DNA of 32,000 nucleotides from Erysipelotrichaceae bacterium OH741_COT-311. GTDB lineage: Bacteria > Bacillota_I > Bacilli_A > Erysipelotrichales > Erysipelotrichaceae. The stretch covers positions 1 through 32,000 of the forward strand of contig RQZE01000008.1 of NCBI GenBank assembly GCA_003858585.1. The letters run 5' to 3'. A model generated the notes under the pieces. It saw only the letters and a list, made by a program, of their open reading frames with translations. It searched no databases and had not been told where the DNA came from. Positions 7,001 to 31,045 of the stretch are shown here, piece by piece. Within the stretch, counting starts at the first letter, position 1, and the number at the start of each line of letters is the position of its first letter. Both the position numbers and the translations under genes were made by a program.

Positions 7001-8085
7001 AAATATTACAAATTTAATTAATCCTTAAGAACCGATATTTATATTTACGAGCATGCATTGACGTACAAATATTACAAATTTAATTAATCCTTAAGAACGC
7101 AATAACGGTCTAATCTTTTCAAACGCACGTACAAATATTACAAATTTAATTAATCCTTAAGAACATGTCAGTTTCCGGAACATTTAATAATTTGGTACAA
7201 ATATTACAAATTTAATTAATCCTTAAGAACGAGAATTAAGAACATGCTAAAACTTACTAAGTACAAATATTACAAATTTAATTAATCCTTAAGAACCGTT
7301 TTCTTTTGTAAAGCATTGTAGCTTGCGTACAAATATTACAAATTTAATTAATCCTTAAGAACACAACTTTTTGATTTTCGCCGAATATGCTAGTACAAAT
7401 ATTACAAATTTAATTAATCCTTAAGAACTACCAGCAAGCCCGTAATAACCTTTGATTGTACAAATATTACAAATTTAATTAATCCTTAAGAACGTCGGTG
7501 ATAGGTTTTAACAACTCAGCATGTACAAATATTACAAATTTAATTAATCCTTAAGAACTCGGATTAGGTATTATGGCTGCATTGATTGGTACAAATATTA
7601 CAAATTTAATTAATCCTTAAGAACAAAGGTCATTAAATCCTTTACTGATGTCATGTACAAATATTACAAATTTAATTAATCCTTAAGAACTTAAATTTTC
7701 AAGTGCTTCTTTTCCGCTAAGTACAAATATTACAAATTTAATTAATCCTTAAGAACGCCTTTTAAGTATTTTTCTATGTTTCTTTCGTACAAATATTACA
7801 AATTTAATTAATCCTTAAGAACTACCAGGTACCCAATCTGGTACATCAACTGGTACAAATATTACAAATTTAATTAATCCTTAAGAACTAAGTATTTAGT
7901 CATAGCTATTGTTTTACCGTACAAATATTACAAATTTAATTAATCCTTAAGAACACTAGATAATCCCCCTACTCCAATAAACTGTACAAATATTACAAAT
8001 TTAATTAATCCTTAAGAACCTGCTGAATTACTAAAGCCAGTTACAGACGGTACAAATATTACAAATTTAATTAATCCTTAAGAAC
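4081..8085 (-). CRISPR. Type II-A CRISPR array: 60 repeats of 36 bp, 59 spacers, plus one degenerate terminal repeat
   Basis: I counted 60 copies of GTACAAATATTACAAATTTAATTAATCCTTAAGAAC (plus-strand reading). The first is at 4178 with G1->A and the last at 8050-8085. The functional sense is the minus strand: GTTCTTAAGGATTAATTAAATTTGTAATATTTGTAC. Spacers are unique, 27-31 bp, mostly 29-30. A degenerate copy with 5 mismatches lies at 4081-4116. Orientation is inferred from the adjacent cas operon, the leader promoter next to repeat 60, the decayed repeat at the far end, and tracrRNA complementarity. Confidence 0.98.
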
Positions 8086-8131
8086 CAGTGCCATTATTAT
8101 AGCACATAAAACCCTTATTTTAAGCTATATT
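8086..8131 (-). promoter_or_regulatory. CRISPR leader with putative pre-crRNA promoter
   Basis: Only 46 bp separate the csn2 stop from the first repeat. Read in minus sense, it has TTAAAA (8118-8123), a 16-nt spacer and TGCTATAAT (8096-8104), so the predicted start is a few nt before the first repeat. Confidence 0.55.
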
Positions 8132-9001
8132 TTAATGTTTTATGTTATTGAAATTACAAAAAAAACTTATATTTTCTTCTTTAAACATATTAAAAATTGC
8201 AATATTTTTTTCTTTTTGTAACTCAATATTTTTCATAGTGAAAGAATTCATTGTATAACAATACTGTGCGGCAAAATAATCAGGAACATCCAAACGTTCT
8301 ACAATCGTAGAATTTTTTATTACTGAAAATTGTATATTTTTCCAATCTACTATGGTTTGATAATCAATTGCATCGTTATCAAGATAAACCATAACATTAT
8401 CCGGCAAATCCCAAATCCAATGTATTACTTTTTGATCTATTGGAAAATCTAAATATAAAATATATTGTTCTCCTTTACTAAAACTTAACAATAAGTTATA
8501 GTACATCATCATTTTCTCATTTAATGTAAATGTTTCTGTATTTATCTTTATCATTTCTAGAATACTGCTTACTTTAAAATCATGGAATTCAATCTCTACG
8601 TGTTTTTCGATACCTTTTGACAACACATTTTTAAGTTTATTCACACCCAAATCTGTTAATAATTCATACATATTCTCTCTGATGTCATTGATACTTAAAA
8701 ACAATTTTGGATTCTGCTCAATAAAATCAATTAATGTATTACTGAATAAAGTTTTTGATTTAAACTCAAAGTTACTTTCTAAACTAGATCCACTTTCATA
8801 TAAAAAAACATACTCTTTTTTGCTTAACAAGTTATAATCATCATCTTTAATTTGACACGAAACAGTTTTATTCTTACTAAAATAATTTCCTAAACAACTT
8901 AATACAAGATTTCGTTCTTCATTATTTACAAGGATGTTCACCTTATGTCTATCAGGAATTTTAAATACTTTATCTTCATATTCAATCAACATTTTTACCA
9001 C
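8132..9001 (-). CDS. csn2: Csn2-like type II-A adaptation protein (assigned by position)
   Basis: 289-aa ORF immediately downstream of cas2 (20-nt overlap) and directly upstream of the leader/array, which is the canonical csn2 slot in cas9-cas1-cas2-csn2 loci. I recognise no sequence motif, so this is a context-based call. Confidence 0.6.
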   Translation of the reverse strand: MVKMLIEYEDKVFKIPDRHKVNILVNNEERNLVLSCLGNYFSKNKTVSCQIKDDDYNLLSKKEYVFLYESGSSLESNFEFKSKTLFSNTLIDFIEQNPKLFLSINDIRENMYELLTDLGVNKLKNVLSKGIEKHVEIEFHDFKVSSILEMIKINTETFTLNEKMMMYYNLLLSFSKGEQYILYLDFPIDQKVIHWIWDLPDNVMVYLDNDAIDYQTIVDWKNIQFSVIKNSTIVERLDVPDYFAAQYCYTMNSFTMKNIELQKEKNIAIFNMFKEENISFFCNFNNIKH

Positions 9002-14567: not shown

Positions 14568-15005
14568 ATGATTACCTTAATTGTTGCGATAAACCACACA
14601 AACTCTATAGGATTAAACAACAAGCTACCTTGGCATAATCCTGATGAGTTACAATACTTTAAACAGATTACCATGGGTAAGACCCTTTACGTTGGTCATA
14701 ACACCTATAAGCATCTACCACCTTTACCAGGACGTAAGATTAAAGTCATTGGACATAACAAAGATGTCCAAGACTTTCATACGTTTTTACTGAATCATCA
14801 AGATTCCAAAGAAGACATCTATATCATTGGTGGGGCTAGTATCTTTAACCAAGCGTTGCCTTACGCCTCATATCTCTATCTCAGTATTGTTAACGATGAC
14901 ACCTTAGGAGATTGCTTTTTCAAGTTTAATCCTTCGCTATACACCCATACTCTTTTACAAAAACAGCCCACCTTCACAAGCTATCTGCTAACAAAAAAAG
15001 AATAA
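14568..15005 (+). CDS. folA: Dihydrofolate reductase (short, divergent)
   Basis: 145 aa. 'MITLIVAIN..SIGLNNKLPWHNPDELQYFKQIT' and 'LPGRKIKVI' match the DHFR N-terminal motifs, and 'IYIIGGASIF' matches the GG motif. The usual MGRKT is replaced by VGHNT. Confidence 0.8.
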   Translation: MITLIVAINHTNSIGLNNKLPWHNPDELQYFKQITMGKTLYVGHNTYKHLPPLPGRKIKVIGHNKDVQDFHTFLLNHQDSKEDIYIIGGASIFNQALPYASYLYLSIVNDDTLGDCFFKFNPSLYTHTLLQKQPTFTSYLLTKKE

Positions 15006-18275: not shown

Positions 18276-19337
18276 TTATTTCACATAAACGGGTTTAAAA
18301 TCATATCCCTCAATAATAAAATTATACTCATACTCATTCTTGGTGAAGTGCATCGTTAACCTATCATTTAACTTTACGGTTTCATCTACATTGATGTTTG
18401 TATCTACACCATACATTCCGGCAATATCCCTACCTAATTCCTTCATGGTTTCAAGCTTAATGGATTCTTCATTATACACAGTTACCACGAGTAATGCTTC
18501 ATCGATAAAGACAATCATACTCATGTCCGAGTCATCGCTATAGGCTATCACATTAAGACGAATCGACTGCCTTCCTTCTTGTGTTTCATCGAAATAATAT
18601 ACATGCGTCTCAAACTCATAAAGGAACTCTTCTCTTGGAACTTTGCTATACGTTTCCATGAAATCGATAATCTTATTCACCTCTAATTGTGTAATCGGAT
18701 CGATAGAAGGTGGATTCATCCAAGCATGAAATACATCTTGATAATAAAAATCTTGGAAGGTTTCATTCAACACAAGATCTCTTTTTGATGTTTTACCGAT
18801 ATGAAGTTGCCATATAATAGGATATTTATGGATACGGTACGTATCAGAAATCTGTTCTTTCTGTAAGTAAAGATCCAGATAAGTTGGTACATATTCTTCC
18901 TTTACAAATAACGTTAAAATGTACTGATATACCGCTTTAAAGTTATACCCTTGATCTAACGGTATGGAAATTTGTAGCGATGGTTCTTCATCATAAATAT
19001 TTTTCACAGCATAAACCGTTATCGGCTTTAATTCATATTTAACACCCTCTTCAGGATAAAAGGTCATGATTAACATTGAACTTGCATAAAATTCTTCATC
19101 TTTATTTAAACGCTCTACCACATAGCCTTCATCACTACGTTTTTGTTCCCTAGTATAATAAGGTTCTTCCAAATAAACCTTACCCATCTCTTCAATGGTT
19201 TGATATTTTAAAATGCCATTAGATGTTTCCGGATAAGGACTTTTCCATTCATAAGGAAGTGGCTTTAAGTTAGCCGTTGGTTTTCCACAAGCAACCAGCA
19301 ATAGTAAAGTTAGTGCTGCAAGAATACTCTTTTTCAT
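18276..19337 (-). CDS. Hypothetical lipoprotein
   Basis: 353 aa. Signal peptide 'MKKSILAALTLLLLVAC' with lipobox L-V-A-C. No further family recognised. Confidence 0.75.
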   Translation of the reverse strand: MKKSILAALTLLLLVACGKPTANLKPLPYEWKSPYPETSNGILKYQTIEEMGKVYLEEPYYTREQKRSDEGYVVERLNKDEEFYASSMLIMTFYPEEGVKYELKPITVYAVKNIYDEEPSLQISIPLDQGYNFKAVYQYILTLFVKEEYVPTYLDLYLQKEQISDTYRIHKYPIIWQLHIGKTSKRDLVLNETFQDFYYQDVFHAWMNPPSIDPITQLEVNKIIDFMETYSKVPREEFLYEFETHVYYFDETQEGRQSIRLNVIAYSDDSDMSMIVFIDEALLVVTVYNEESIKLETMKELGRDIAGMYGVDTNINVDETVKLNDRLTMHFTKNEYEYNFIIEGYDFKPVYVK

Positions 19338-19426
19338 AGCTCTTTTAACTTCCCTTCTTTACTTTTATTGTAGTGGTTTTTTATCAATCTTTCAATGAAG
19401 CAAAATGAAAAGTTGCCTAGGGCAAC

Positions 19427-20026
19427 TTACTTTTTAATTCCTATAATAAATTCACTATGTGGTAGCGTTTCAATCCAATCGCAGATAGCTTGCCACTCCG
19501 GCAAACGATGATGTCGACGTTGATGATAAATCGTTTTTAACTGGCGATAATTCGTTGTCATTTTCGCTGTAATACGAAATCCACATGGATTGGAATATAA
19601 GATTTCTAAATACTTTTGTTTTAAACTTGGATCATTTGCACTTTTGGCATGCAGTTCATTGTATTCTGCCACTTTTTCTTTCATAATCGCAATCATGCGA
19701 GGATCCACATATGGCATATAACTTTTATCCAAATCAAAACGTGTAATGCGATGCATGGTTGATTGCGAAGAGATAAAATCTAGGAAGTGATAGCGTTGTG
19801 CTTCCACCCATGCTTTATTACTTAAGGTTAAGTCAAAGGTAATTAAAATACCATTTAAGAAATTATCATGTCCTTCCCCTTGTCTTGATGTCGCTAATGC
19901 AATGGTTGTTTTGGTAATGTCATCGTTTAAACTTTCTAAATCCGTTGCCATTGGATACTTCGCTCCCTTTACCGCTTCGTTTAATCCATAGACATTCACA
20001 TGGCTAATCACTTCATTGTAATGCAT
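19427..20026 (-). CDS. ThyX (Thy1)-fold protein with non-canonical active-site motif
   Basis: 'GHDNFLNGILITFDLTLSNKAWVEAQRYH' parallels ThyX 'GHETPFEH..FTF.......ARQWFRHR'. 'NYRQLKTIYHQRRHHRLPEW' parallels 'N.RSL..F..LR....AQWEI'. The signature RHR is RYH and the S-x-R-Y part is altered. 199 aa. The start overlaps the mnmG stop by 14 nt. A hairpin terminator lies at its stop (19410-19428). Confidence 0.5.
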   Translation of the reverse strand: MHYNEVISHVNVYGLNEAVKGAKYPMATDLESLNDDITKTTIALATSRQGEGHDNFLNGILITFDLTLSNKAWVEAQRYHFLDFISSQSTMHRITRFDLDKSYMPYVDPRMIAIMKEKVAEYNELHAKSANDPSLKQKYLEILYSNPCGFRITAKMTTNYRQLKTIYHQRRHHRLPEWQAICDWIETLPHSEFIIGIKK

Positions 20027-21884
20027 GTTGTTTCTCCCTTCTTTTCATTTCTAAATAAATTGCAAGTACTTGAATATCACTTGGATTTACTCCTGAGATA
20101 CGACTTGCTTGGCCAATGGTCATTGGACGACATTGTTTTAATTTACTACGAGCTTCCAGTGATAAATTCGCTACTTCATCATAATTAATATGCTCCGGCA
20201 AACGCAATTTTTCCATATTATGCATCTTCGAAGCTTCTTTTTTCGCTTTTTCAATATAACCCTGATACTTTACATCAATTTCAATTAAGTGTGCTACTTC
20301 TTTTTCAATCATAAAATCTAAGTAAGGTAAAATCCCTTCAATGGTTACATGAGGACGAGCAATTAGTTTTAATGCACTCATTCCTTCACTTAACGCTTCA
20401 AAACCAATCGTCTTTAAATATGCATTGACTTCTGATTTACTATTAAAACGCACTTCATTTAGCTTTTGCTTATATTCTTCCACTTTACGATATTTCTCAA
20501 GATATTCTTCATAACGCTTTTTCGAAACCAACTTAGCTTGATAGCCATAGTCCATTAAACGCTTATCTGCATTATCATGTCGTAACAGTAAACGAAACTC
20601 TGCACGACTGGTAAGTAAGCGATAAGGTTCTAACGTTCCCTTTGTACATAAATCATCAATTAATACACCAATATATGCCTCATCTCTTCGTAAGATCAAT
20701 GGTTCTTTACCCATCAACTTGTTAATCGCATTGATTCCTGCCATAATCCCTTGTCCGGCAGCTTCTTCATACCCACTTGTTCCATTGATTTGTCCTGCTG
20801 TAAATAAGTTTTCAATTAATTTACTTTCTAAAGTTGGCTTCATCTGTAAAGGGTTAATCGCATCGTATTCAATCGCATAGGCATATTTTTCAATCACCGC
20901 ATGTTCCAGTCCAGGTAGTGTTTTAATCATCTCTTCTTGGACTTCCTTTGGCAAAGAGGTTGAAAAGCCTTGTACATAGGTAGTATCTAAGGATAAGCTT
21001 TCCGGCTCTAAGAAAATTTGATGACGCTCTTTATCATGAAAACGCACTAATTTATCCTCAATGCTTGGGCAATAACGAGGACCAACGCCTTTTACAACAC
21101 CAGAGTACATACTCGAACGATGTAAATTGGCATTGATAAGTTTGTGGGTCTTACTATTGGTATAGGTTAAGTAACAAGGGACTTGTTGATCAAGAGGCAA
21201 CGCTGTTCCACGTTGAGAAAACGTAATGTCTTCATCTGTACCCGGTTCATATTGTGTTTTAGAAAAATCAATGGATTCTGTCTTTACACGTGGCGGAGTT
21301 CCTGTTTTCAAACGGAATAGCTCAAAGCCTAGTGCTTTTAAACAAGCACTTAAATCATTGGTTGTTGGTTCACTATCCGGTCCACTTTCCGTAACTTCAT
21401 CGGAAATCATACATAAAGAAGCCATATATGTTCCTGTTGTTAAAATAACAATCTTACTTTCCAGTATTCCTTTTTCTTTAAGGATAACGCCTTTGGCAAC
21501 TTTATCACTTACCACTAAACCTGTGCATATATCCTCAATCACATCTAAATGTTCTTGAGCTAAACATAATTCTTGCATCAACTTACTATAGGCAAGTTTA
21601 TCCGATTGCACACGCAAAGACTGTACTCCTGGACCTTTGGCTTTGTTTAACATCTTAAACTGTAATGCTGTTTTATCTGCCACATAAGGCATAACGCCCC
21701 CTAAGGCATCAATTTCTTTTACGACAATCCCCTTGGCTGGACCTCCAATAGAAGGATTGCATGGCATTTTGCCAATATTGTTTATACTTAATGTAATTAA
21801 AGCTGTTTTATATTGTGCTTTACTACAAGCCATCGCTGCTTCAATGCCGGCATGACCTCCTCCGACTACAATGACATCATACAT
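20013..21884 (-). CDS. mnmG: tRNA uridine 5-carboxymethylaminomethyl modification enzyme MnmG (GidA)
   Basis: 623 aa. FAD motif 'YDVIVVGGGHAGIEAA', 'GPRYCPSIEDK', 'LFTAGQINGTSGYEEAAGQG'. Confidence 0.97.
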   Translation of the reverse strand: MYDVIVVGGGHAGIEAAMACSKAQYKTALITLSINNIGKMPCNPSIGGPAKGIVVKEIDALGGVMPYVADKTALQFKMLNKAKGPGVQSLRVQSDKLAYSKLMQELCLAQEHLDVIEDICTGLVVSDKVAKGVILKEKGILESKIVILTTGTYMASLCMISDEVTESGPDSEPTTNDLSACLKALGFELFRLKTGTPPRVKTESIDFSKTQYEPGTDEDITFSQRGTALPLDQQVPCYLTYTNSKTHKLINANLHRSSMYSGVVKGVGPRYCPSIEDKLVRFHDKERHQIFLEPESLSLDTTYVQGFSTSLPKEVQEEMIKTLPGLEHAVIEKYAYAIEYDAINPLQMKPTLESKLIENLFTAGQINGTSGYEEAAGQGIMAGINAINKLMGKEPLILRRDEAYIGVLIDDLCTKGTLEPYRLLTSRAEFRLLLRHDNADKRLMDYGYQAKLVSKKRYEEYLEKYRKVEEYKQKLNEVRFNSKSEVNAYLKTIGFEALSEGMSALKLIARPHVTIEGILPYLDFMIEKEVAHLIEIDVKYQGYIEKAKKEASKMHNMEKLRLPEHINYDEVANLSLEARSKLKQCRPMTIGQASRISGVNPSDIQVLAIYLEMKRREKQHALQ

Positions 21885-22090: not shown

Positions 22091-22745
22091 TTAAACTTTA
22101 ATTTTATCTTTAAAAAGGCTAATATTCTTTACATACTCTTGCATATTTTCAATTTCTTTTGTTACATGACCAATTAACTTCCCTAAATCAATTGATTTTT
22201 TAGAAGTGATAACAGGTTGTCCTGTTTCTTATTCAAATGTTTTTTGCAACCTTTGCAACATAACCTCCTCTTTGAGCTACTTTTTTATTTGCTTCAAAGG
22301 TTGGACAATTTGATGTTCTAGTGATATCTTTTGTAGCTGTTTCAGCAAGCATATTTTAGACAATATCTATTGTTGTCATATTATCTCTTAGATTTTCTTT
22401 TTTAAGTCCCTTAAAATCTTTATATTGTCTTGTTATCATTTCTGACCAAGCTTTAGTTATTTCATCGGTTAAAATAGCATATTCTCTGCTTTGTTTTATC
22501 CCCCTAATTTTGCCAAGCATCGGTTAATTCTTTCCTCACTTGAATAGCTTGAAATCTTTAGTTAATTCATTCTCTGAAATATCCTTTCTTTATATATGTT
22601 TCTAAAGCTCTATCAATATTAAATTCAGAATCTATGATTTCATCGATTCATCCTTTTCCAATCTCTGCTAACCACATTTTAAATGGTTCTGCTTTAGGCG
22701 ATGAAACTGACTAAATAATACGAAAGATTCCCTGCATATCCCGAG
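22091..22745 (-). pseudogene. Decayed paralogue of the BRO-N/DinD-like gene (lacks the N-terminal BRO-N part)
   Basis: The nucleotide sequence is alignable by eye to 25840-26430. For example, CCAATTAACTT(C/T)CCTAAATCAAT and CCACAT(T/C)TTAAATGGTTCTGC(T/C)TT(A/T)GG(C/T)GATG are shared. Translated in the homologous frame it contains several in-frame stops (..DMQGIFRII*, ..TTIDIV*NMLAE.., ..VAKNI*) and at least one frameshift. Confidence 0.8.
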
Positions 22746-23044
22746 GTGCTGTCAAGCTCATTAAGGATTTTGACTGCTGTCTTATTGGATCTTCCTAAAA
22801 TCTTCATAATCTCTTCCACAGTGAAGATGATATATACTCTGTTTTCTTCATCAATCCACTTATTCCTGAAAGACAGATTTATTCGCTCCAATAGGCAAGA
22901 ATATAAAATCTTTGCATCCGATGATAAGTTCTTAAACTTTTCATCAGTTACTATAATTTTCGGTAGCATATAGTAGCTGAAACGGTCTCCGTCCCGGTTA
23001 TAAAAATAATCAAATTCCACTTCTATCGCCTCCTCTCTTTTCAA
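22694..23044 (-). pseudogene. Truncated replication initiator (RepA_N-type N-terminal domain only), fused to the decayed BRO/DinD fragment
   Basis: 'FSYYMLPKIIVTDEKFKNLSSDAKILYSCLLERINLSFRNKWIDEENRVYIIFTVEEIMKILGRSNKTAVKILNELD' matches the RepA_N winged-helix domain of Firmicutes plasmids and ICEs. Only about 100 aa remain. The last roughly 17 codons read out of frame into the BRO/DinD-like remnant. The likely true start is the GTG at 23020, after GAGGAGG. Confidence 0.65.
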
Positions 23045-23049
23045 TTTTT

Positions 23050-23089
23050 GGCATAATAAAAGACGATAGATGTTTTACTTTCTATCGTC
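23050..23089 (-). terminator. Rho-independent terminator of the GC-richer operon
   Basis: Hairpin GACGATAGA (23062-23070) / TCTATCGTC (23081-23089), followed on the minus strand by TTTTATTAT. It lies about 55 nt downstream of the ATPase gene stop. Confidence 0.65.
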
Positions 23090-23142
23090 CTGTATCTTCA
23101 ATATTTAGTTTTATTCAGCTCGACAAACTGAATTTTTTGATA

Positions 23143-23637
23143 TCAAAGCGTCAGTATTTCACTCACGATTTCACAAACGTTCTTATTGACTGTATCCACT
23201 TTTATGGTGTCAAGTATTTGATACATGTTGATTCTTGCAACACTTCTGTCGATTACATCGTTACTGCGGATCCCCCTGGCGATGTCAGCAGAGAGTCTTT
23301 TACGCAAATTGGTTTCATCGATCATAAGCGAAATCTTTATGACTCTCGCATCTCCTGTGTCCAGACTATTGATTATTTCGTCAATAATGGATTGTTCATG
23401 CATTACCCAGCAGAAAATGATATTTTTATAGGCCGTACAGTGGAGAAAACTATTCAGCAAGAAGCAGATGTTGCGCATGACCATGGCTTTTGTTTCTTCT
23501 GTTACCTGAAACGGATCGGCATCCCAACACCAATCGCCGTCAAGAAAAACACTGTTCGGCAACTCCTTTTTCAGCTGCTGACTTACCGTCGATTTACCGA
23601 CGCCCATTGTACCGCCGATCAGATATATTGTTTTCAT
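23143..23637 (-). CDS. P-loop NTPase / small kinase-like protein (AAA family annotation type)
   Basis: 164 aa with Walker A 'GGTMGVGKST' at the extreme N-terminus. Its size and layout resemble small nucleotide or antibiotic kinases. The substrate is unknown. Confidence 0.7.
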   Translation of the reverse strand: MKTIYLIGGTMGVGKSTVSQQLKKELPNSVFLDGDWCWDADPFQVTEETKAMVMRNICFLLNSFLHCTAYKNIIFCWVMHEQSIIDEIINSLDTGDARVIKISLMIDETNLRKRLSADIARGIRSNDVIDRSVARINMYQILDTIKVDTVNKNVCEIVSEILTL

Positions 23638-23689
23638 ATCTGTTCCTCACAAATCCCGATTTGGAGACATCCCAACAAATGGGAATTTC

Positions 23690-24088
23690 TCACTTTCTGT
23701 TTCTTATAATCTCTGCCTGCATAGCATCGCACCATTTATCCCATTTTTCTTTATAGTCCTCTTCGGAAACAATACGCATCAGCAGATCCTCTGGTGATAA
23801 AACAGACTGCTCCTGGCAGGCGTTTACGCATGCCCGATACATATCCCAATCCAACTCGTCCTTATCCCACACTAACGGAACGTGATCCAGCCCGGCTTTA
23901 ATTGCGGCCACAGCTCTGGTATGTCCGTCCGTCATAACAAGTTTGCCATCCAGTTGCTTTACAGGGATCGGCTCAAAGTTAGAGAAATCGGATGGATTGA
24001 TCCATCTTTCAATATCCTCAAGCTTCTTTGCGGATATATAAAACTGAGAAGGCTGTAATTCTTTCAGTTTCGTATCGGATAAATTCAC
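23690..24088 (-). CDS. ParB/sulfiredoxin-fold (ParB-like nuclease domain) protein
   Basis: 132 aa. 'LQPSQFYIS' followed by 'VMTDGHTRAVAAIKAG' resembles the DGHHR core of the ParB/Srx fold. Confidence 0.55.
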   Translation of the reverse strand: MNLSDTKLKELQPSQFYISAKKLEDIERWINPSDFSNFEPIPVKQLDGKLVMTDGHTRAVAAIKAGLDHVPLVWDKDELDWDMYRACVNACQEQSVLSPEDLLMRIVSEEDYKEKWDKWCDAMQAEIIRNRK

Positions 24089-24119
24089 AAGTTATTCACC
24101 TCTACAAATTGGAAGTTGT

Positions 24120-24563
24120 CTATTTGCTTAATACGCAGTTGTATCGGACAACAGAACCATCAGGATAATCAACTACGATCCTTTCTTCGGTAAAGCCACA
24201 CTTACGGTAGAATCCGATTGAATCGTCGTCTGTCTGTGCATCGATCCTTTCCAAACCCTCAGATTTCATCACATATTGGATCATGCGTCTTCCGGTTCCT
24301 TGACGACGCTTTCTTTCGGACACAGCAATTCCGATGATTTCAGCAACAGAATCTGAGATTCTCAGCACCATCATGCCTGTTTTCTTGCCTTGGCTCTCGC
24401 ACACATATACTCTTACCGATGGATCGCTTATTAAATCTTCTATTTGTTTTTTGAAATTCTCATACCTTGGTTGATACATACAGGAAGCATATAGCAAGAA
24501 TGCCTCTTCTGAAAGAAGCCAGTCTTCATCAACGCATGATATAACATTCATAACTGCCCTCAC
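24120..24563 (-). CDS. GNAT family N-acetyltransferase
   Basis: 147 aa. Acetyl-CoA motif A 'VSERKRRQGTGRRMIQYVM' (Q/R-x-x-G-x-G/A) and 'FYRKCGF'. Confidence 0.85.
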   Translation of the reverse strand: MRAVMNVISCVDEDWLLSEEAFLLYASCMYQPRYENFKKQIEDLISDPSVRVYVCESQGKKTGMMVLRISDSVAEIIGIAVSERKRRQGTGRRMIQYVMKSEGLERIDAQTDDDSIGFYRKCGFTEERIVVDYPDGSVVRYNCVLSK

Positions 24564-24579
24564 AAACCAGAGTTTGTCT

Positions 24580-25047
24580 TTATCTATGCTTTTCTAAGCG
24601 TATAAGACCTTCTTCATCTGGTACACTAATTCCGTTTTTATATGTGTATCCCATTTTTATATAAAAGGGAGTTGCAGTGATCGAGGCAGGTATTTCAATT
24701 CTGTTCGCACGAAGGAAATATTCGTCTTTTTCCAAAGTATCTATGATCTTTCTTCCGATTCCTTGCCCGTGATACTCTGGTAAAACGAAGATAGTGAATA
24801 AACTACTTTCGTCAACTTTACCCCAGTACGGTCCTATTGCACCGCAGCCCACAATTCTATCCTCATCGCATACTACATAAAAATGAGTCCATTTTGCGCG
24901 CTCCAAGATGTCTTTCGGTTGTAATTTTTGAACATCATTTTCGATATATTCCCTCGAATAATCTTTGGTGTTGACTTCTCTGAGCGTCCTAACAATCAAA
25001 GCTGATACATTTCCTGCATCTTCAGGCTCGATTCTTCTGATAATCAT
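24580..25047 (-). CDS. GNAT family N-acetyltransferase
   Basis: 155 aa. 'VLPEYHGQGIGRKIIDTLE' motif A and 'PFYIKMGY'. Confidence 0.85.
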   Translation of the reverse strand: MIIRRIEPEDAGNVSALIVRTLREVNTKDYSREYIENDVQKLQPKDILERAKWTHFYVVCDEDRIVGCGAIGPYWGKVDESSLFTIFVLPEYHGQGIGRKIIDTLEKDEYFLRANRIEIPASITATPFYIKMGYTYKNGISVPDEEGLIRLEKHR

Positions 25048-25077
25048 TGCATCACATCCTCATAAATCTCGATTTAT

Positions 25078-25359
25078 CTACACCTCTTTAATCTTCTCAT
25101 TTATCAATTCAATAAACGCTATCACAGTCGCTCCTATCATCGGAAGCCCATAGGGACTAAATAGGAAACCGATAACCAAGCCCGATATACCTATTCCAAT
25201 TTCTCCTTGAATGAAAGAAGCTAAAGCCCCAAATATACAGAACACCATAACGATATACAGTAATGCTGTTCCAATACCAAGTAAGAATGTCAAGAAAGCA
25301 GTCAGAATTGATAAAACAAGACTAATCGGAAATAAGATAATTTTTAATATCCATCGCAT
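25078..25359 (-). CDS. Small hypothetical membrane protein (3 TM)
   Basis: 93 aa, almost entirely hydrophobic or glycine-rich TM segments. AAGAGG RBS. It is the first gene of the five-gene minus-strand operon. Confidence 0.6.
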   Translation of the reverse strand: MRWILKIILFPISLVLSILTAFLTFLLGIGTALLYIVMVFCIFGALASFIQGEIGIGISGLVIGFLFSPYGLPMIGATVIAFIELINEKIKEV

Positions 25360-25621
25360 ACACTACCTCTTTTCTCTTCGGCTTATGTGCTGCTTACAAC
25401 CATTATTTTAATGGATAATAGCTCTAAGCAACATATAAACTACCAGTTTCTTCAGTTTTTAACTTTGGTAGAAGCTTCAAAACCCTTGATTTTATTAGAC
25501 TTTTTACCACTAACATAATTATGACATAAAACCCATATGTTAAATCATGTAGTAAAATCAAGGGTTGAAAACACTAAATTTCCATCTATTCAGGAGGGAT
25601 ACTTACCATACAAACCGAAAA

Positions 25622-25783
25622 TTATTTGCGGTTATTCAATATCCCAATAATCAATACTGCTATTGATATACCATAAAGTATTCCTAAAATTAAATAACTA
25701 ACATGTGATATTTTATTTAAAATAATTGCCAAAGCCAAAAATAGCATTCCTACAGGTACTTGTTTATTTTTATTTAATTTCAT
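25622..25783 (-). CDS. Possible 53-aa membrane peptide (not in the ORF track)
   Basis: ATG at 25783 and TAA at 25622-25624, translating to MKLNKNKQVPVGMLFLALAIILNKISHVSYLILGILYGISIAVLIIGILNNRK with two hydrophobic helices. GGGAGAAAAGAA lies upstream. Confidence 0.35.
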   Translation of the reverse strand: MKLNKNKQVPVGMLFLALAIILNKISHVSYLILGILYGISIAVLIIGILNNRK

Positions 25784-25816
25784 AAATTCTTTTCTCCCAA
25801 CTTATAATTTATAACT

Positions 25817-26668
25817 CTATTCATCGTTTTCAGTCTCTTTAACTACATCGCCAATTAACTTTCCTAAATCAATAGCTTTTTTTGATGTAATTACTGGTTT
25901 TCCAGTTTTGTCTTCTATTTCTTTTCTAGCATTACCAGCAATACTTCCACCTTCTTTAGCCACTTTTTTATTTTCTTCAAATCCCTGAGGGTTAGTTGCA
26001 TTTGCAAGTTCTGTTGTTGTAGCTTCTGCAAGCATATTTAAAACCAATTCCAGTGTCGACATATTATCTCTTAAATTTTGTTTCTTTAAACCTTTATGCT
26101 CTTTGTATTGTCTAGTTGTCATACCAGACCATGCCTTAGTTATTTCATTAGTTAAGATTGCATATTCTTTTCCTTCTTGAACTCCATGATCTTGCCAAGT
26201 ATCTGTAAGTTCTTTTCTCACCTGAATAGCTTGTAGTCTTTGGTTTATCCATTCTCTGGTATATCCTTTTTTAAGATAAGTTTCTAAAGCTCTATCTATT
26301 GTAAGTTCTGGATCTATTATTTCATCTATTCTTTCTTTCCCAACTTCTGCAAGCCACATCTTAAATGGTTCTGCCTTTGGTGATGGTACAGATTGAATGA
26401 TACGGAATATACCTTGCATATCGGAAACGTCTGTTTCTCTCATTTTTCCATCAGGAGCCTTTAATTTCAACTGTCGACAAAATGTCGACAGTTCACTTTT
26501 TTCTTCTTCTGACATTCTCTTCTTAACACGATACCAATAGTCCCTCGGATTTTTACTCTCTGTTAATACTCCAACAATATCTACTACCGAAAAATACCAT
26601 TCTTCTTTTTCACTATCCCAAACAGAACGTATCTGACTTCCTTCAAATAATTTAATTTCGTTATCCAA
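25817..26668 (-). CDS. BRO-N domain protein with DinD-like (DNA-damage-inducible protein D) C-terminal region
   Basis: 283 aa with a TTG start after AAAGGAG. The N-terminus 'FEGSQIRSVWDSEKEEWYFSVVDIVGVL' matches BRO-N. The C-terminus 'YKEHKGLKKQNLRDNMSTLELVLNMLAE' parallels E. coli DinD 'HQRKGLKKNQKILDHMGSTELAANLFR'. Confidence 0.85.
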   Translation of the reverse strand: MDNEIKLFEGSQIRSVWDSEKEEWYFSVVDIVGVLTESKNPRDYWYRVKKRMSEEEKSELSTFCRQLKLKAPDGKMRETDVSDMQGIFRIIQSVPSPKAEPFKMWLAEVGKERIDEIIDPELTIDRALETYLKKGYTREWINQRLQAIQVRKELTDTWQDHGVQEGKEYAILTNEITKAWSGMTTRQYKEHKGLKKQNLRDNMSTLELVLNMLAEATTTELANATNPQGFEENKKVAKEGGSIAGNARKEIEDKTGKPVITSKKAIDLGKLIGDVVKETENDE

Positions 26669-26889: not shown

Positions 26890-26914
26890 TTAAAAACCCC
26901 TCGAATTCGAGGAG
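26890..26914 (-). terminator. Rho-independent terminator of the CARF-nuclease operon
   Basis: Palindrome CCTCGAATTCGAGG (26899-26912), followed on the minus strand by TTTTT (complement of 26892-26896). It lies about 65 nt after the 297-aa ORF stop. Confidence 0.7.
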
Positions 26915-26980
26915 TTTAAAATCTGGATTAATGAACTTCTACCTAACTTCTAAATATTCTATATATTAAAGTCTTTTCCC

Positions 26981-27874
26981 TTATCGTATGTGTTCAATAA
27001 TCTTTAACAACTCGCTGTTTTCCGGTAATAACACATACTCCATCAACACACTATATGGACAATACTGTTTCATATAATATTGAAACAACTGTAAATAACC
27101 TAACACCAATTGCACATTACGATCATGAAGATCTTTTATCGTATGTGCCAAAACAAATGTAATCTTCCCTTCTTGATAACGATATAAAAGATAAGGGTTG
27201 CCTTTCATCGCAATGAAGTCCGGATGATCCAGTTGATATTGTTTGATCACTTTCTTTAAACCTGAAGGATTTTCTTCTAGATAAGTAAGAGCCTTTATTT
27301 CTTTAAAACTATTTAAAATCGCCACACGAACTTCTTCATGCTCAATGACATCATGACTTACTTCATGTTCCAAAGAAGACCATAAATCAATGCCGTTTTC
27401 TTTTGCCTTCTGTAAGATTTTAAACGTAATTTGACTATCCTGACGATCTAGATATACAAAGCTTTCCAGTTTATTGGAAATCTCTAATCCCAATTCACTT
27501 GGATAAATCGGACTTTGAAAAAATACTACATGCGTTAAATACAAACTATTTAATTTCTTTGGTAAACGCTCTTGTTTTAGAATCTTGGTAATTCCCTCTT
27601 GAAAACGTTCTAAGCTACGATAACCATTTTGACTTCCATAGACATCCCACATCTTCTTGATTGACATATTACCCTGTTTTACAAGTCGTCCATAACCTAA
27701 AATCCCTTTTTCTTTTTTACTATCACACTTCGTTAAGAAGAATAATAAATCCCCTTCTTTAAAATCTTTAAATTGTTTACTGCTTTCCAAACGCCAAAAA
27801 TTCATCGTTGTGCTACCATTTAAACGATGAAATTCTAATATAGTACGATCTGTGATATACGCAATGGATGCCAT
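26981..27874 (-). CDS. Uncharacterised 297-aa partner of the CARF nuclease (possible PUA/EVE-like N-terminal barrel, possible PD-ExK-like C-terminus)
   Basis: The start ATG is 1 nt after the stop of the upstream gene, so the two are tightly coupled. The N-terminus 'NFWRLESSKQFKDFKEGDLLFF...KGILGYGRL' resembles small beta-barrel reader domains. The C-terminus 'HPDFIAMKGNPYLLYRYQEGKITFVL' could be a PD..ExK motif. Both domain ideas are tentative. Confidence 0.6.
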   Translation of the reverse strand: MASIAYITDRTILEFHRLNGSTTMNFWRLESSKQFKDFKEGDLLFFLTKCDSKKEKGILGYGRLVKQGNMSIKKMWDVYGSQNGYRSLERFQEGITKILKQERLPKKLNSLYLTHVVFFQSPIYPSELGLEISNKLESFVYLDRQDSQITFKILQKAKENGIDLWSSLEHEVSHDVIEHEEVRVAILNSFKEIKALTYLEENPSGLKKVIKQYQLDHPDFIAMKGNPYLLYRYQEGKITFVLAHTIKDLHDRNVQLVLGYLQLFQYYMKQYCPYSVLMEYVLLPENSELLKIIEHIR

Positions 27875-27875
27875 C

Positions 27876-29060
27876 TTACATTACCTTTTTATACTCATAT
27901 GTATTATTACATATTTCTTGCACTTTCTTAACTAATAAATCATTTTTTAAATCATAAGAATCAATAATATAAATACCTAATTCCTTAGCCTTATTATAAA
28001 TAATTGGATTGCTTTTAGAAACATGGGCACCTGTAACAATAATACACTTGGAATAACTATTACCAAAAATAATCGAATGCAACTTTATTTCATTTAATGC
28101 TTCCGCATCTACCTTATTCATCTTACAAGAGATAAAGATGGGATACATATCCTTACAAGCCAAGACATCAATTTCACAACGCGCATCATTTCCGGCATTA
28201 ATTCTACCATCATAATCAATGATGGCGCTTACCATACAATCATCTAAAAATCCACTTTGTTTTAACTTGATGTAGGTATAGTTTTCAAGCCACGCTCCGG
28301 CATCTTTAAATAAGTGTTTGATGATTTTATTCTTAAAGGACATCATACTCTTTTGCTTATCAAAATAGAGTAAATCTAAATTTTCCAACTGATGGAAGAC
28401 TTTATTATCAATCATCCATACTTGATTCTTAGGAATATATAACTTGGTATCTGCAATATTATTTTTTTCAATACTCATCAATTTAATAAAATCACTCATC
28501 ACGTTGGTAAAATAGCGAAAATCATACTGAATGATTTCAAAGACACGAAGAACATCATTGACTAATTCATGATTATTTAAATCAATTTGATAGTGTTGAG
28601 TATTACTAATCTTAGAACCACTTAAAAAGATGAGATCTGCAATACTTAACTTAGGATACTTAAAGATGGCTTTAATATCCTTACTACCACTTACATTCAT
28701 CATATCTTTATGATCATGGTCAATAAAGAAAGTACGGTACCCCTTTTTATTACAAGCCGTTGACATGTTGATTAAATCAATGCCATAGCCTCCTGTTAAA
28801 TTAACATAGACATCTTGATGGATGGTTTCTAAAATGGGATATAAATTTTCTAAGCGTGAATTTACAATGTGATGAATTCTTACTTTACAGTTTCTATTCT
28901 TTTCAATGATTTGTTTGAGACTATCGATTTTAGCAGATGGTTTTTGATTGACACAAATAAAATGGACTTCTTGAAAATCCAAAGCCAAGGCTGCCGTAAC
29001 ATTTTTTAAATAGTCGTTATCATAGATTTCAATTAAGGTTTTCATACTAGCATTATACAC
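27876..29060 (-). CDS. Card1/Can2-like CARF-domain + PD-(D/E)xK (DUF1887-type) nuclease
   Basis: The N-terminal Rossmann-like half ends in 'VYVNLTGGYGIDLINM', a CARF-type TGG loop. The C-terminal half has 'GAWLENYTYIKLKQSG', 'ARCEIDVLACK' and 'PIFISCKMNK', matching the G-x-W-[FL]-E / E-x-D / x-C-K core of Card1-like endonuclease domains. The true start may be the ATG at 29045 (MKTLIEIY...), because a TATAAT lies 6 nt upstream of it and neither start has an RBS. Confidence 0.75.
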   Translation of the reverse strand: MYNASMKTLIEIYDNDYLKNVTAALALDFQEVHFICVNQKPSAKIDSLKQIIEKNRNCKVRIHHIVNSRLENLYPILETIHQDVYVNLTGGYGIDLINMSTACNKKGYRTFFIDHDHKDMMNVSGSKDIKAIFKYPKLSIADLIFLSGSKISNTQHYQIDLNNHELVNDVLRVFEIIQYDFRYFTNVMSDFIKLMSIEKNNIADTKLYIPKNQVWMIDNKVFHQLENLDLLYFDKQKSMMSFKNKIIKHLFKDAGAWLENYTYIKLKQSGFLDDCMVSAIIDYDGRINAGNDARCEIDVLACKDMYPIFISCKMNKVDAEALNEIKLHSIIFGNSYSKCIIVTGAHVSKSNPIIYNKAKELGIYIIDSYDLKNDLLVKKVQEICNNTYEYKKVM

Positions 29061-29138
29061 TAAATAAAGACGTTATTTCACCCTTAAAAAGAAAGTCATT
29101 GTAACGTATAATAAGAATACCCTAGAAAGGAGAACCAG

Positions 29139-30632
29139 ATGTACGTAGCGATTGATTTAAAATCCTTTTATGCCTCCGTAGAATGTCAAAAAAGAGGATT
29201 AAACCCCTTAACTACCCACTTAGTTGTCGCTGATGAAAGTCGCAGTGAAAAAACGATTTGTCTTGCAGTATCTCCTTCTTTAAAATCTTTAGGGATAAAA
29301 GGAAGACCACGTTTATTTGAAGTATTAGCGAAAATCAAAGAAGAAAATCGTAAACGTTTCAAAGAAAATCGTTATCGAGCATTCACAAAAAAATCCTATG
29401 ACAGTAAAGTGTTGGAATGCGATCCAAGCAGTCAAATAGACCTTGTTATTGCAACACCCCATATGCAACAATACATTGATGTAAGTAATGAAATATATAA
29501 CGTGTATTTAAACTTTGTATCCAGTCAGGATATTCATATTTATTCGATTGATGAAGTGTTTATCGATGTAAGTAGTTATCTTTCTATTTATAATTTATCC
29601 GCTTATGAATTAACCCTACGCATGATTGAAGAAGTATTAAGAAAAACAGGCATTACCGCAACAGCAGGCATTGGAACAAATTTATATCTTGCCAAAGTGG
29701 CAATGGATATTATGGCAAAAAAGATGAAACCAAATGAAAATGGTGTGCGCATTGCCTTTTTAGATGAACAACGTTACCGCAAAGAGCTATGGCATCATAA
29801 ACCCATTACAGATTTTTGGCGTGTTGGTCATGGATATCAAAAACGCTTAGCGGAGCTTGGTTTATATACCATGTATGATGTTGCCAAGTGTTCTTTAGGA
29901 AAAAGTAGTGACTATCACAATGAAGATTTACTCTATAAAACCTTTGGAATCAATGCAGAATTATTGATTGATCATGCTTGGGGTTATGAATCCTGTACTA
30001 TGCAGGATATAAAAGACTATAAACCTCAACATCGTAGTCTTGGCTCAGGTCAAGTCCTACATGAAGTCTATAACTTTGAAGATGCTTTATTGGTTGTCAA
30101 GGAAATGGTAGATCAATTAGCGCTGGATCTAACGGAAAAACAATTAGTAACCAATCAACTGGTATTAACTGTTGGATATGATACTTGTAATGTGGATAAG
30201 TATTTCCAAGGAAATACTACGATAGATCCTTATGGACGTAAGCTCCCTAAAAACGCCCATGGAAGTATCAAGCTGCCTTATTATACTTATTGTTCTTCCC
30301 TTATGACTTCCTCCATTGAAACCCTGTTTCATCAAATTGTAAAGTCTGACTTATGGATCAAACGGTTAAATATTTCATTGATGAATGTCATAACAAAACA
30401 GGAAGCCAATCAGAAAATAGAAGTTGCACAAGTAAGTATCTTTGATACAGCACAATTCTTAGATCAACAAAAAAACCTAGATAAAGATAGAAAGCGTGAA
30501 GAACAATTACAGGCTTCTTTACTTAAGATTAAAAAGAAATATGGAAAAAATGCTATCTTAAAAGCAAGAAGTTTTACCGAAAAGGCAACTGCTAAACAAC
30601 GTAATCAACAAATTGGGGGACATAAAGCATGA
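29139..30632 (+). CDS. Y-family (UmuC/UvrX/ImpB-type) translesion DNA polymerase
   Basis: 497 aa. 'VAIDLKSFYASVEC' (motif I), 'YSIDEVFIDV' (motif III catalytic DE), 'GIGTNLYLAKVA'. AAAGGAG RBS and TATAAT at 29107-29112. Confidence 0.92.
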   Translation: MYVAIDLKSFYASVECQKRGLNPLTTHLVVADESRSEKTICLAVSPSLKSLGIKGRPRLFEVLAKIKEENRKRFKENRYRAFTKKSYDSKVLECDPSSQIDLVIATPHMQQYIDVSNEIYNVYLNFVSSQDIHIYSIDEVFIDVSSYLSIYNLSAYELTLRMIEEVLRKTGITATAGIGTNLYLAKVAMDIMAKKMKPNENGVRIAFLDEQRYRKELWHHKPITDFWRVGHGYQKRLAELGLYTMYDVAKCSLGKSSDYHNEDLLYKTFGINAELLIDHAWGYESCTMQDIKDYKPQHRSLGSGQVLHEVYNFEDALLVVKEMVDQLALDLTEKQLVTNQLVLTVGYDTCNVDKYFQGNTTIDPYGRKLPKNAHGSIKLPYYTYCSSLMTSSIETLFHQIVKSDLWIKRLNISLMNVITKQEANQKIEVAQVSIFDTAQFLDQQKNLDKDRKREEQLQASLLKIKKKYGKNAILKARSFTEKATAKQRNQQIGGHKA

Positions 30633-31045
30633 GTCAAGATGAACTTTCTTATACACAAACCTATGTAAAGTCGAAACGTCATCCATGGATGTCTAATTTT
30701 GATCGTGCTGCTCAATTTGCCCCGTTTGCCGCTTTAACCGGACACAAGGAAACCTTAGATGAAACTGCTCGTTATGTTTCTAAAAAACGATCGTTAAGTC
30801 AAGATGCTTTCGATTTATTAAATCAAAAAATTCAACTGCTCATACAGCATAAAGAGGAAAACCCTTTGATTACCGTTACCTATTTTTTAAAAGACTCTTT
30901 AAAAGAAGGTGGATGTTATGTCACGCTTTCTTCAACAATGCGTAACATAGATCATCAAGGTTACTTACATCTGGAAGATGATACAAAGATTTTACTTGAT
31001 GATATTTTGGAAATAGACTCTTCCTTATTTCAGGACTATTTCTAA
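30629..31045 (+). CDS. YolD-like protein (UmuD-equivalent accessory of Firmicutes Y-polymerases)
   Basis: 138 aa with a 4-nt ATGA overlap with the polymerase gene. 'RHPWMSNFDRAAQFAPFAALTGH' resembles the YolD-family core. The gene order matches the uvrX-yolD / yqjW-yqzH type. Confidence 0.65.
   Translation: MSQDELSYTQTYVKSKRHPWMSNFDRAAQFAPFAALTGHKETLDETARYVSKKRSLSQDAFDLLNQKIQLLIQHKEENPLITVTYFLKDSLKEGGCYVTLSSTMRNIDHQGYLHLEDDTKILLDDILEIDSSLFQDYF

Follow-up and report, generated by a model that had tools for sequence, protein, structure and literature searches.

Can2 and Card1 are ancillary nucleases of type III CRISPR systems that are switched on by cyclic tetra-adenylate (cA4), a ligand that Can2 contacts through S19, T42, K99 and Y118 (PMC7969007). 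A different case is VC1899 of Vibrio cholerae (PDB 1xmx), which is an orphan with no type III CRISPR association, carries Asp9 where Can2 has Ser19, is insensitive to cA4 and displays weak residual activity in vitro (PMC7969007). Here we have analysed a stretch of 32,000 nucleotides from Erysipelotrichaceae bacterium OH741_COT-311 (contig RQZE01000008.1, positions 1 to 32,000; the whole stretch is called the window hereafter), where a CARF nuclease gene of this family is followed on the minus strand by a gene for a 297-amino-acid (aa) protein, the partner. A reading made earlier from the letters of this DNA (the sequence-only reading) had proposed that the two genes may form a self-contained defence or abortive-infection module, and had overlooked the precedent of VC1899 (PMC7969007). 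In our opinion, it is rather probable that the window holds a member of an orphan VC1899-like CARF nuclease lineage, which came to lie in a housekeeping operon and has been inherited along with a reader-like protein.

Two minus-strand open reading frames (ORFs) were confirmed at 27876..29060 (394 aa from a GTG) and 26981..27874 (297 aa), with a spacing of 1 nt between the stop of the CARF gene and the ATG of the partner, so that their tight coupling was described correctly. The 394-aa product of the sequence-only reading corresponds to a real ORF, yet its length has to be revised; the ORF as mechanically called opens at GTG 29060, whereas homologues begin with MKTLIE and the database cluster of the protein (P0121) has 389 aa, and for these reasons the true start is almost certainly ATG 29045, the CARF gene thereby spanning 27876..29045 (-). 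The motifs quoted before (VNLTGGYG, GAWLENYTY, EIDVL and ISCK) are all present in the translation. Moreover, the proposed CARF-like N-terminal half with a Card1-type PD-(D/E)xK core is well supported: the 389-aa protein matched the PADLOC model CARF4--CARF_PDDEXK with a best E-value of 6e-32 along residues 6-382, its full length, and Pfam Card1_endonuc (PF09002) with 28.2 bits, above the gathering score of 26.4, while Pfam CARF_Card1 (PF23400) had no match in it. Searches of the PDB with a single CARF or partner sequence returned nothing useful and only a profile search worked. A profile of 18 homologues matched Can2 (7bdv, 2.8e-20), VC1899 (1xmx, 8e-18, query 5-365 to chain 7-372), the DUF1887 protein 8bao (1e-16) and Card1 (6wxw, 9e-8). 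These alignments enter the CARF domains, from chain residue 17 in Can2 and from residue 7 in VC1899, and so cover an N-terminal Rossmann-like CARF domain; the Card1-type domain has its GxW[LF]E helix as well as its E-x-D motif (GAWLE and EID, followed by SCK). One clade member is named "DUF1887 family protein" at NCBI. Judged by architecture and profile, the 389-aa protein is a genuine full-length member of the DUF1887/CARF4 family (Can2/Card1/VC1899-like).

The active site of this lineage is conserved in an altered form. In the 18 aligned homologues, which share 21-43% identity with the window protein, G250, E254, E291, D293, S306 and K308 are invariant, which argues that the active site is under selection. 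The third nuclease motif is an invariant S-x-K (S306 and K308, in the form S-[CI]-K) instead of the canonical (D/E)-x-K; the three solved proteins with printed alignments (Can2 7bdv, VC1899 1xmx and 8bao) and the CRISPR-linked relative P0281 have E-C-K. Since the lysine is retained, S-x-K reads as a variant motif rather than a lost one. The nuclease is probably still catalytic; by analogy with Can2 it would be a dimeric metal-dependent enzyme. The YYDxxENxIKDY block of the CARF domain is conserved as well, indicating purifying selection in the clade. CARF ORFs are intact in 11 of the 12 lineage members, and the copy on the metagenomic contig L084 (10001-11053) is C-terminally shortened to 350 aa.

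The genomic address of the CARF gene is what sets this lineage in a housekeeping context. Relatives of the partner were found in 185 species, from which 80 loci were fetched with one genome per species, nearly all of them labelled Erysipelotrichaceae or its genera. The CARF gene was detected at 8 of the 80 partner loci (8 of 77 assessable), always immediately upstream of the partner, and 69 of the 77 assessable genomes have the partner without any CARF. A single-sequence tblastn for CARF may miss divergent copies, and the size and Pfam identity of the gene upstream of the partner served as a cross-check: it is 538-565 aa long in about 43 loci (formate-tetrahydrofolate ligase, fhs, where tested by Pfam) and 195-199 aa long in 14 (RecR where tested by Pfam). 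The gene downstream of the partner is usually mnmG, which in relatives lies 0-0.4 kb away. The order at the eight CARF loci is dnaX-ybaB-recR-(fhs)-CARF-partner-(small ORF)-mnmG, and the beginning of the CARF gene frequently overlaps with the stop of the gene before it. Three further pairs, on the metagenomic contigs L083, L084 and L090, share the same backbone, and contig L085 has the same upstream string and ends after its CARF gene. In L083 the order continues as mnmG-...-rsmG-noc-parA-parB-mnmE-tatD, identical to that of the window except for three insertions or replacements in the latter: mnmE and parB are separated by a Cas9 locus and its array, a 4-kb remnant of a mobile element separates mnmG from the partner, and a Y-family polymerase/YolD pair stands in place of fhs/recR.

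In all 12 lineage cases that have downstream sequence, the CARF gene adjoins the partner, with gaps of -13 to +19 nt save one of 81 nt (L084). The linkage is one-directional, the CARF gene being always with the partner and the partner usually without CARF. Because most of the family keeps the partner at the same site without a CARF gene, the partner has a CARF-independent presence and is not a dedicated CARF accessory. Thus, co-occurrence of the 297-aa homologues with CARF-DUF1887 genes, which had been suggested as a check, holds from CARF to partner (12/12) but not from partner to CARF (8/80). The idea of a self-contained two-gene defence or abortive-infection module is not supported, in view of the 69 of 77 genomes without CARF, the housekeeping string around the pair and the absence of the pair from phages and mobile plasmids.

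Both genes appear to have travelled together for a long time. CARF and partner diverge in parallel (r = 0.93 between pairwise identities, 55 pairs), with a mean identity of 35% for CARF (range 24-62%) and 45% for the partner (range 36-68%). When both proteins were compared by tblastn with 50,697 phage and 72,556 plasmid records, a single weak CARF match was obtained, on an 809-kb replicon; with no phage match and this sole weak plasmid match, the possibility that the pair is a mobile module was discarded. The distribution is not that of a sporadic or mobile element either, the position being fixed in dnaX-ybaB-recR-fhs...mnmG. In a first neighbour-joining tree, the eight CARF-linked partners formed one clade. 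A later, bootstrapped tree, to which the window, L083, L084 and L090 were added, placed all 12 CARF-linked partners in a 13-member clade whose sole extra member is L032; the claim that the CARF-linked partners make one clean clade was then dropped on its bootstrap values (4/100 for the 12, 11/100 for the 13). Within this clade, subclade B (8 members) had a bootstrap of 100/100, and the group of the window, the conspecific contig L001 and L083 had 61/100. L032 carries fhs-partner-mnmG with neither a CARF gene nor a CARF remnant, and its 94-nt spacer between fhs and the partner (L032:1846-1939) contains a hairpin. The shortened CARF copy of L084 and the CARF-less L032 may be stages of decay or loss. 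The most parsimonious history has one gain and joint inheritance from then on, perhaps with a single loss, although it is weakly supported.

With respect to the ligand, the residues that Can2 uses for cA4 are not kept. In the window protein, the counterparts of Can2 S19, T42, K99 and Y118 are D, V, G and F, by alignments at about 25% identity where loop positions are uncertain. An acidic residue (D or E) stands at the Can2-S19 position in 11 of 11 clade CARFs, whereas P0281 has T there. Because the Ser/Thr/Lys contacts of Can2 are gone and a conserved acidic residue is present, as in VC1899, the nuclease is presumably not driven by cA4 made by Cas10; it would be gated by a different nucleotide-like ligand, or be constitutive at a low level like VC1899.

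The surroundings of the CARF gene point in the same direction as its pocket. The window has Cas9, Cas1 and Cas2 together with a CRISPR array at 4179-8086 (66-bp period, about 59 units). The sequence-only reading saw here a type II-A system as the only CRISPR system of the window; the Cas9 system stands, but the subtype is less certain, as the fourth gene of the cas group (8132-9001, 289 aa) gave no match to Csn2 in Pfam or PADLOC. Its statement that the window lacks cas10, Csm/Cmr and CD-NTase-like genes was borne out: neither cas10, Csm/Cmr nor a cyclase gene was found among the annotated ORFs of the 32 kb, and neither Cas10, Csm/Cmr nor CD-NTase was among the 25 PADLOC families reported for the 114 ORFs lying within 10 kb on either side of the eight loci. 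On the same 114 ORFs, PADLOC recovered CARF4 in 8 of 8 cases, and the only other recurrent family was a dCTPase model (6 of the 114 ORFs), whose matches are probably the dCMP_cyt_deam_1 deaminase gene of the block in L084 and L090. Contigs L083, L084 and L090 were also free of cas10 and Csm/Cmr. There is thus no genomic association with type III CRISPR in the window, in the flanks of the eight loci or in these three contigs. The relative with canonical motifs, P0281 (TGGTK loop and E-C-K), is found in a cas1-cas2-Cas_VVA1548-Cas_NE0113 locus, and the distant S-x-K relatives P0127, P0128 and P0130 all lie outside CRISPR loci (3/3).

The partner (26981..27874, -) consists of a conserved ASCH/PUA-like N-domain and a variable C-domain. 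No family of Pfam, NCBIfam, PADLOC or PHROG matches it at E <= 1, Pfam ASCH included. It has 192 database homologues, the named ones all from Erysipelotrichaceae genera, and an exhaustive profile search gave about 105 full-length clusters. The N-domain (about residues 1-165) is strongly conserved and the C-domain (about 170-297, some 130 residues) is variable, the mean identity among CARF-linked partners being 58% in the former vs 27% in the latter; conserved residues are H16, R17, D42, E137, Y141 and D143. In an AlphaFold2 model of the partner (pLDDT 86), the N-domain is an ASCH/PUA-like barrel, and a Foldseek search with it matched ZmASCH (5y6b, E = 5e-6, TM 0.70 relative to the target), af2351 (7e-6) and the N-domain of McrB from Staphylothermus marinus (6n0s, 1.4e-3). 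As modelled, the N-domain has a PUA-like beta-barrel fold. Remote profile matches have only this domain in common with the partner, and in the ten that were tested it is fused to HNH (9/10) or to a McrB-like AAA_5 domain (1/10). Modification-dependent restriction enzymes are built in this way, with a reader domain fused N-terminally to HNH or McrB (PMC6765204, PMC7641849). Hence the PUA/EVE-like reader barrel seen in the partner by the sequence-only reading is upheld, both by the ASCH-like matches of the model and by the relatives fused to HNH or McrB.

The same does not apply to the second nuclease that had been suspected from a "PD...x15...EGK" string in the C-domain. The string is present, yet in an alignment of 27 sequences it is not conserved, and the C-domain has no invariant residue save one near-invariant Gly. 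Modelled alone, the C-domain reaches a pLDDT of 87 with the order alpha-alpha-beta-beta-alpha-beta-alpha, against the alpha-beta-beta-beta-alpha-beta core of PD-(D/E)xK nucleases, and its fold search gave best E-values of 0.06 in the PDB and 0.016 among the viral structures of BFVD, with no PD-(D/E)xK structural match. A PD-(D/E)xK nuclease was rejected for this domain, since its residues are not conserved and a confident domain model found no match. Having no HNH, PD-(D/E)xK or NTPase domain, the partner does not combine a reader with a nuclease or an NTPase in the way of a type IV restriction enzyme. Its position beside the tRNA-modification gene mnmG would fit an RNA-related role.

In the history that we favour, a small non-CRISPR CARF sublineage would have reached the chromosome in a single event and settled between fhs/recR and an ASCH/PUA-like reader gene that was already there, the entry site being the origin-proximal string dnaX-ybaB-recR-fhs-[CARF]-partner-mnmG of an uncultured Erysipelotrichaceae group. 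Since then, the CARF gene would have shared inheritance and transcription with the reader gene, and the CARF-gated nuclease would answer a ligand other than cA4, or be weakly constitutive. Several observations weigh against this history. The single-gain scenario is weakly supported by the deep nodes of the tree (bootstrap 4/100 for the 12 CARF-linked partners alone and 11/100 for the 13 that include the CARF-less L032), and tight coupling over such deep divergence could reflect functional cooperation beside the history of insertion. Catalysis with S-x-K is predicted from residue conservation. The canonical T-G-G loop is still there in the window protein, and a K or R stands one residue off the Can2 K99 position in most clade members, which leaves room for ligand binding; moreover, loop alignments at about 25% identity are uncertain. 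The searches covered the window and flanks, so a type III locus or a cyclase may lie at a distance. Finally, genes that are candidates for defence (PDC-S13 on one side, a PtuB-like gene in L001 on the other) flank the pair in the source species.

Perhaps the pair is instead a two-gene surveillance module, in which the PUA-like protein recognises nucleic acid that is modified or foreign, or else a modified mononucleotide, and then brings in or licenses the CARF nuclease; the pair would thus amount to modification-dependent restriction or abortive infection, split over two proteins and working without type III CRISPR. We regard this as unlikely, though it is the strongest competitor. It draws on the adjacency in 12/12 cases, mostly at translational-coupling distances, despite a divergence of 24-62% identity for CARF and 36-68% for the partner; on the ASCH/PUA-like N-domain and its remote homologues fused to HNH or AAA_5; and on the partner C-domain, which has no catalytic residues and for which a nuclease in trans makes sense. 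Moreover, according to a preprint, a protein with a PUA domain takes part in defence by sensing a modified mononucleotide (bioRxiv 10.64898/2026.01.15.699771). On the other hand, about 90% of the sampled species have the partner at this locus with no CARF gene, so that its role does not depend on CARF, no defence signature was found in it with PADLOC, PHROG or Pfam, the pair is vertically inherited within a housekeeping operon and is neither sporadic nor island-borne, and tblastn found both proteins absent from phage records and mobile plasmids. Reader and nuclease may cooperate: the coupling and the restriction-enzyme relatives argue for it, and the conservation of the partner in about 90% of species argues for a role of its own. 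A related and slightly less probable proposal, which we hold as speculative, is that the orphan CARF nuclease has been domesticated in the dnaX-ybaB-recR replication/repair operon of a gut Erysipelotrichaceae lineage and forms with the PUA-like reader of modified bases or nucleotides a CRISPR-independent surveillance pair, the acidic pocket receiving its signal from the reader or from a metabolite handled by the reader; if true, such a pair would be a CARF signalling pathway with a ligand other than a cyclic oligoadenylate (cOA), and without Cas10.

Still more doubtful is that the protein is a conventional cOA effector, with its signal coming from a distant type III locus, another cyclase or phage, and with the adjacency of the partner being incidental. 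It belongs to the same family as the cA4-activated Can2 and Card1, it has kept the T-G-G loop, its CARF domain is under purifying selection (e.g. YYDxxENxIKDY) and the genome searches were limited to the window and flanks. Yet D, V and G take the places of S19, T42 and K99, with an acidic residue throughout the clade as in the cA4-insensitive VC1899; no cas10/Csm/Cmr occurs in the 32-kb window or within 10 kb of the pair in 8 genomes; the distant S-x-K relatives lie outside CRISPR loci; and a long fixation in a replication/repair operon would be unlike the usual turnover of CRISPR accessory genes. The least probable explanation, and in our judgement a very improbable one, is that the CARF protein is a dead or decaying relic, with S-x-K in place of the metal-binding E-x-K, which has a structural or regulatory use or is heading to loss. 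This would accommodate the E-C-K of the solved relatives against the S-[CI]-K of the lineage, the weak residual activity of VC1899 in vitro, the shortened L084 copy (350 aa) with its 81-nt gap and the possible loss of the CARF gene in L032. However, E254, E291, D293, S306 and K308 are invariant at 21-43% identity, implying selection on the active site, and the ORFs are intact in 11/12 members. In addition, PD-(D/E)xK enzymes can do with S, Q, N or T in place of the E of E-x-K when another acidic residue compensates, the Cfr10I-type S-x-K being an example.

An orphan nuclease lineage inserted into a housekeeping operon thus remains the explanation that we prefer. Neither ligand nor role is known for VC1899 and similar orphan CARF proteins, and the present lineage provides a tractable comparative handle on them, with a fixed genomic address, a constant reader-fold neighbour, a conserved S-x-K and a conserved change of the pocket. 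Should the ligand not be a cOA, or should nuclease and PUA-like protein act together, the reach of CARF signalling would go past type III CRISPR. Otherwise, this is a cautionary case, showing that conserved coupling beside a protein of a defence family can come from insertion into a housekeeping operon, with no dedicated module needed.

The transcription signals of the two genes are those of a compact unit. Its own terminator, placed before at 26890-26914, was confirmed by RNA folding as an intrinsic-terminator-like hairpin at about 26890..26917 (-) that closes the two-gene unit, with a 10-bp stem, an AAUU loop and a U-run (minus strand: AAACUCCUCG-AAUU-CGAGGGGUUU then UU; free energy -15 kcal/mol, z = -3.15); a consensus pattern-based terminator scanner did not pick up this hairpin. 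At the other end, a divergent intergenic region (29046..29138) is common to the CARF gene and the Y-family polymerase operon. The sequence-only reading had given it as a 78-bp divergent promoter region; it is divergent and has one promoter-like site per strand in a promoter scan, at 29081..29052 (-, GTGAAA-18-TATAAT) and at 29084..29112 (+), but with the start at ATG 29045 it is 93 bp long, not 78. The best minus-strand -10 hexamer, TATAAT (29057-29052), stops 6 nt short of ATG 29045, and no good Shine-Dalgarno sequence at normal spacing precedes this ATG; the CARF mRNA could be leaderless. The CARF gene and the partner would be transcribed together. Neither a Cheo/LexA box (<= 2 mismatches) nor an inverted repeat or palindrome was found in the intergenic region, and SOS control via the promoter region common to the Y-family polymerase was rejected, there being no LexA box or inverted repeat.

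The genes that surround the pair are partly mobile and partly those of the conserved origin-proximal block. To the right, the divergent Y-family DNA polymerase (497 aa, IMS/IMS_C) and YolD-like protein (138 aa) genes, at 29139..31045 (+), replace fhs/recR; they overlap each other, and the YolD-like match is weak (E = 0.003). The pairing of a Y-family polymerase with YolD is typical of prophages and of integrative and conjugative elements. Just past the right end of the window, in the same species, L001:267-1361 encodes a 364-aa protein that matches the PADLOC models PDC-M01B and PtuB-like (HNH), at best with 5.6e-13. To the left, between the partner and mnmG and outside the two-gene unit, a species-specific insertion at 22694..26668 (-) is absent from the spacing of relatives. 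It begins just past the terminator of the pair with a Bro-N protein (25817-26668, -) that matches PADLOC PDC-S13 at 3.4e-140 near full length and phrog_15286 at 1e-127; PDC-S13 is a candidate single-gene defence family of PADLOC. The Bro-N protein has 85% identity with its counterpart in L001, vs 96-98% for the other window genes compared. Further on, 22694-25359 (-) is a decayed mobile-element insertion with a RepA_N fragment of 116 aa, a P-loop protein (AAA_18, with a weak match to VakA), two GNAT acetyltransferases and DUF5699. The L001 ORFs beyond Bro-N are of 133, 269, 147 and 262 aa vs 93, 155, 147 and 132 aa in the window, sizes that suggest a variable hotspot. Among the eight CARF-linked loci, one has AbiEi/AbiEii in its flanks (5e-68 and 2e-88) and a PDC-S22 match (3e-57) occurs once, possibly at a different locus.

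The downstream anchor of the partner across the family, mnmG, lies in the window at 20013..21884 (-). Directly downstream of it, two ORFs of 353 and 199 aa (18276-20026, -) have no Pfam or PADLOC match; since L083 has ORFs of 311 and 197 aa at the same position, they are conserved unknowns of the origin-proximal block. A dihydrofolate reductase gene (14568-15005, +) is located on the opposite strand between cas9 and parB, at the edge of the CRISPR-Cas insertion.

Taken against the systems already described, the partner finds its likenesses in two groups. Modification-dependent PUA-HNH and PUA-McrB enzymes, with readers of the PUA superfamily (EVE/ASCH/SRA; e.g. VcaM4I, TspA15I and SmMcrB-N), have an N-terminal reader domain that is profile-homologous to the partner N-domain; the partner differs in having no nuclease or NTPase domain, a variable C-domain and a vertically inherited, family-wide housekeeping locus rather than a scattered distribution. 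The ZmASCH ribonuclease (5y6b/5guq) is the best structural match of the N-domain, yet the partner, unlike ASCH proteins, has an extra C-domain of 130 aa and no Pfam ASCH match. ASCH proteins of the YqfB type are N4-acetylcytidine amidohydrolases. In a census paper on EVE domains, no PUA-CARF link is reported.

As regards the nuclease, Can2 (SthCan2, 7bdv), 8bao and Card1 (6wxw) share with the window protein the CARF + PD-(D/E)xK fold family, GxW[LF]E, E-x-D and a length of about 370-400 aa, but the window protein has no type III locus in view, unconserved cA4 contacts (S19/T42/K99) and S-x-K, a contrast that the CRISPR-linked P0281 with its TGGTK and ECK highlights. On the two features tested, genomic association and predicted cA4-contact residues, the 389-aa protein does not qualify, in the functional sense, as an ancillary effector of type III CRISPR. 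Among known cases, the nearest is the protein on which DUF1887 was founded, VC1899, which has the same two-domain architecture in a nearly full-length alignment (8e-18), an acidic residue (D9) at the Can2-Ser19 position like the D/E of 11 clade members, and the same retained E-x-D nuclease residues. VC1899 differs by its E-C-K in place of S-x-K and by a low sequence identity, and the window lineage, in contrast with it, is fixed in the dnaX-recR-fhs...mnmG string and always precedes an ASCH-like gene. What is new here is the invariant change of S for E in the triad, the fixation in a replication/repair-proximal operon and the constant ASCH-like neighbour.

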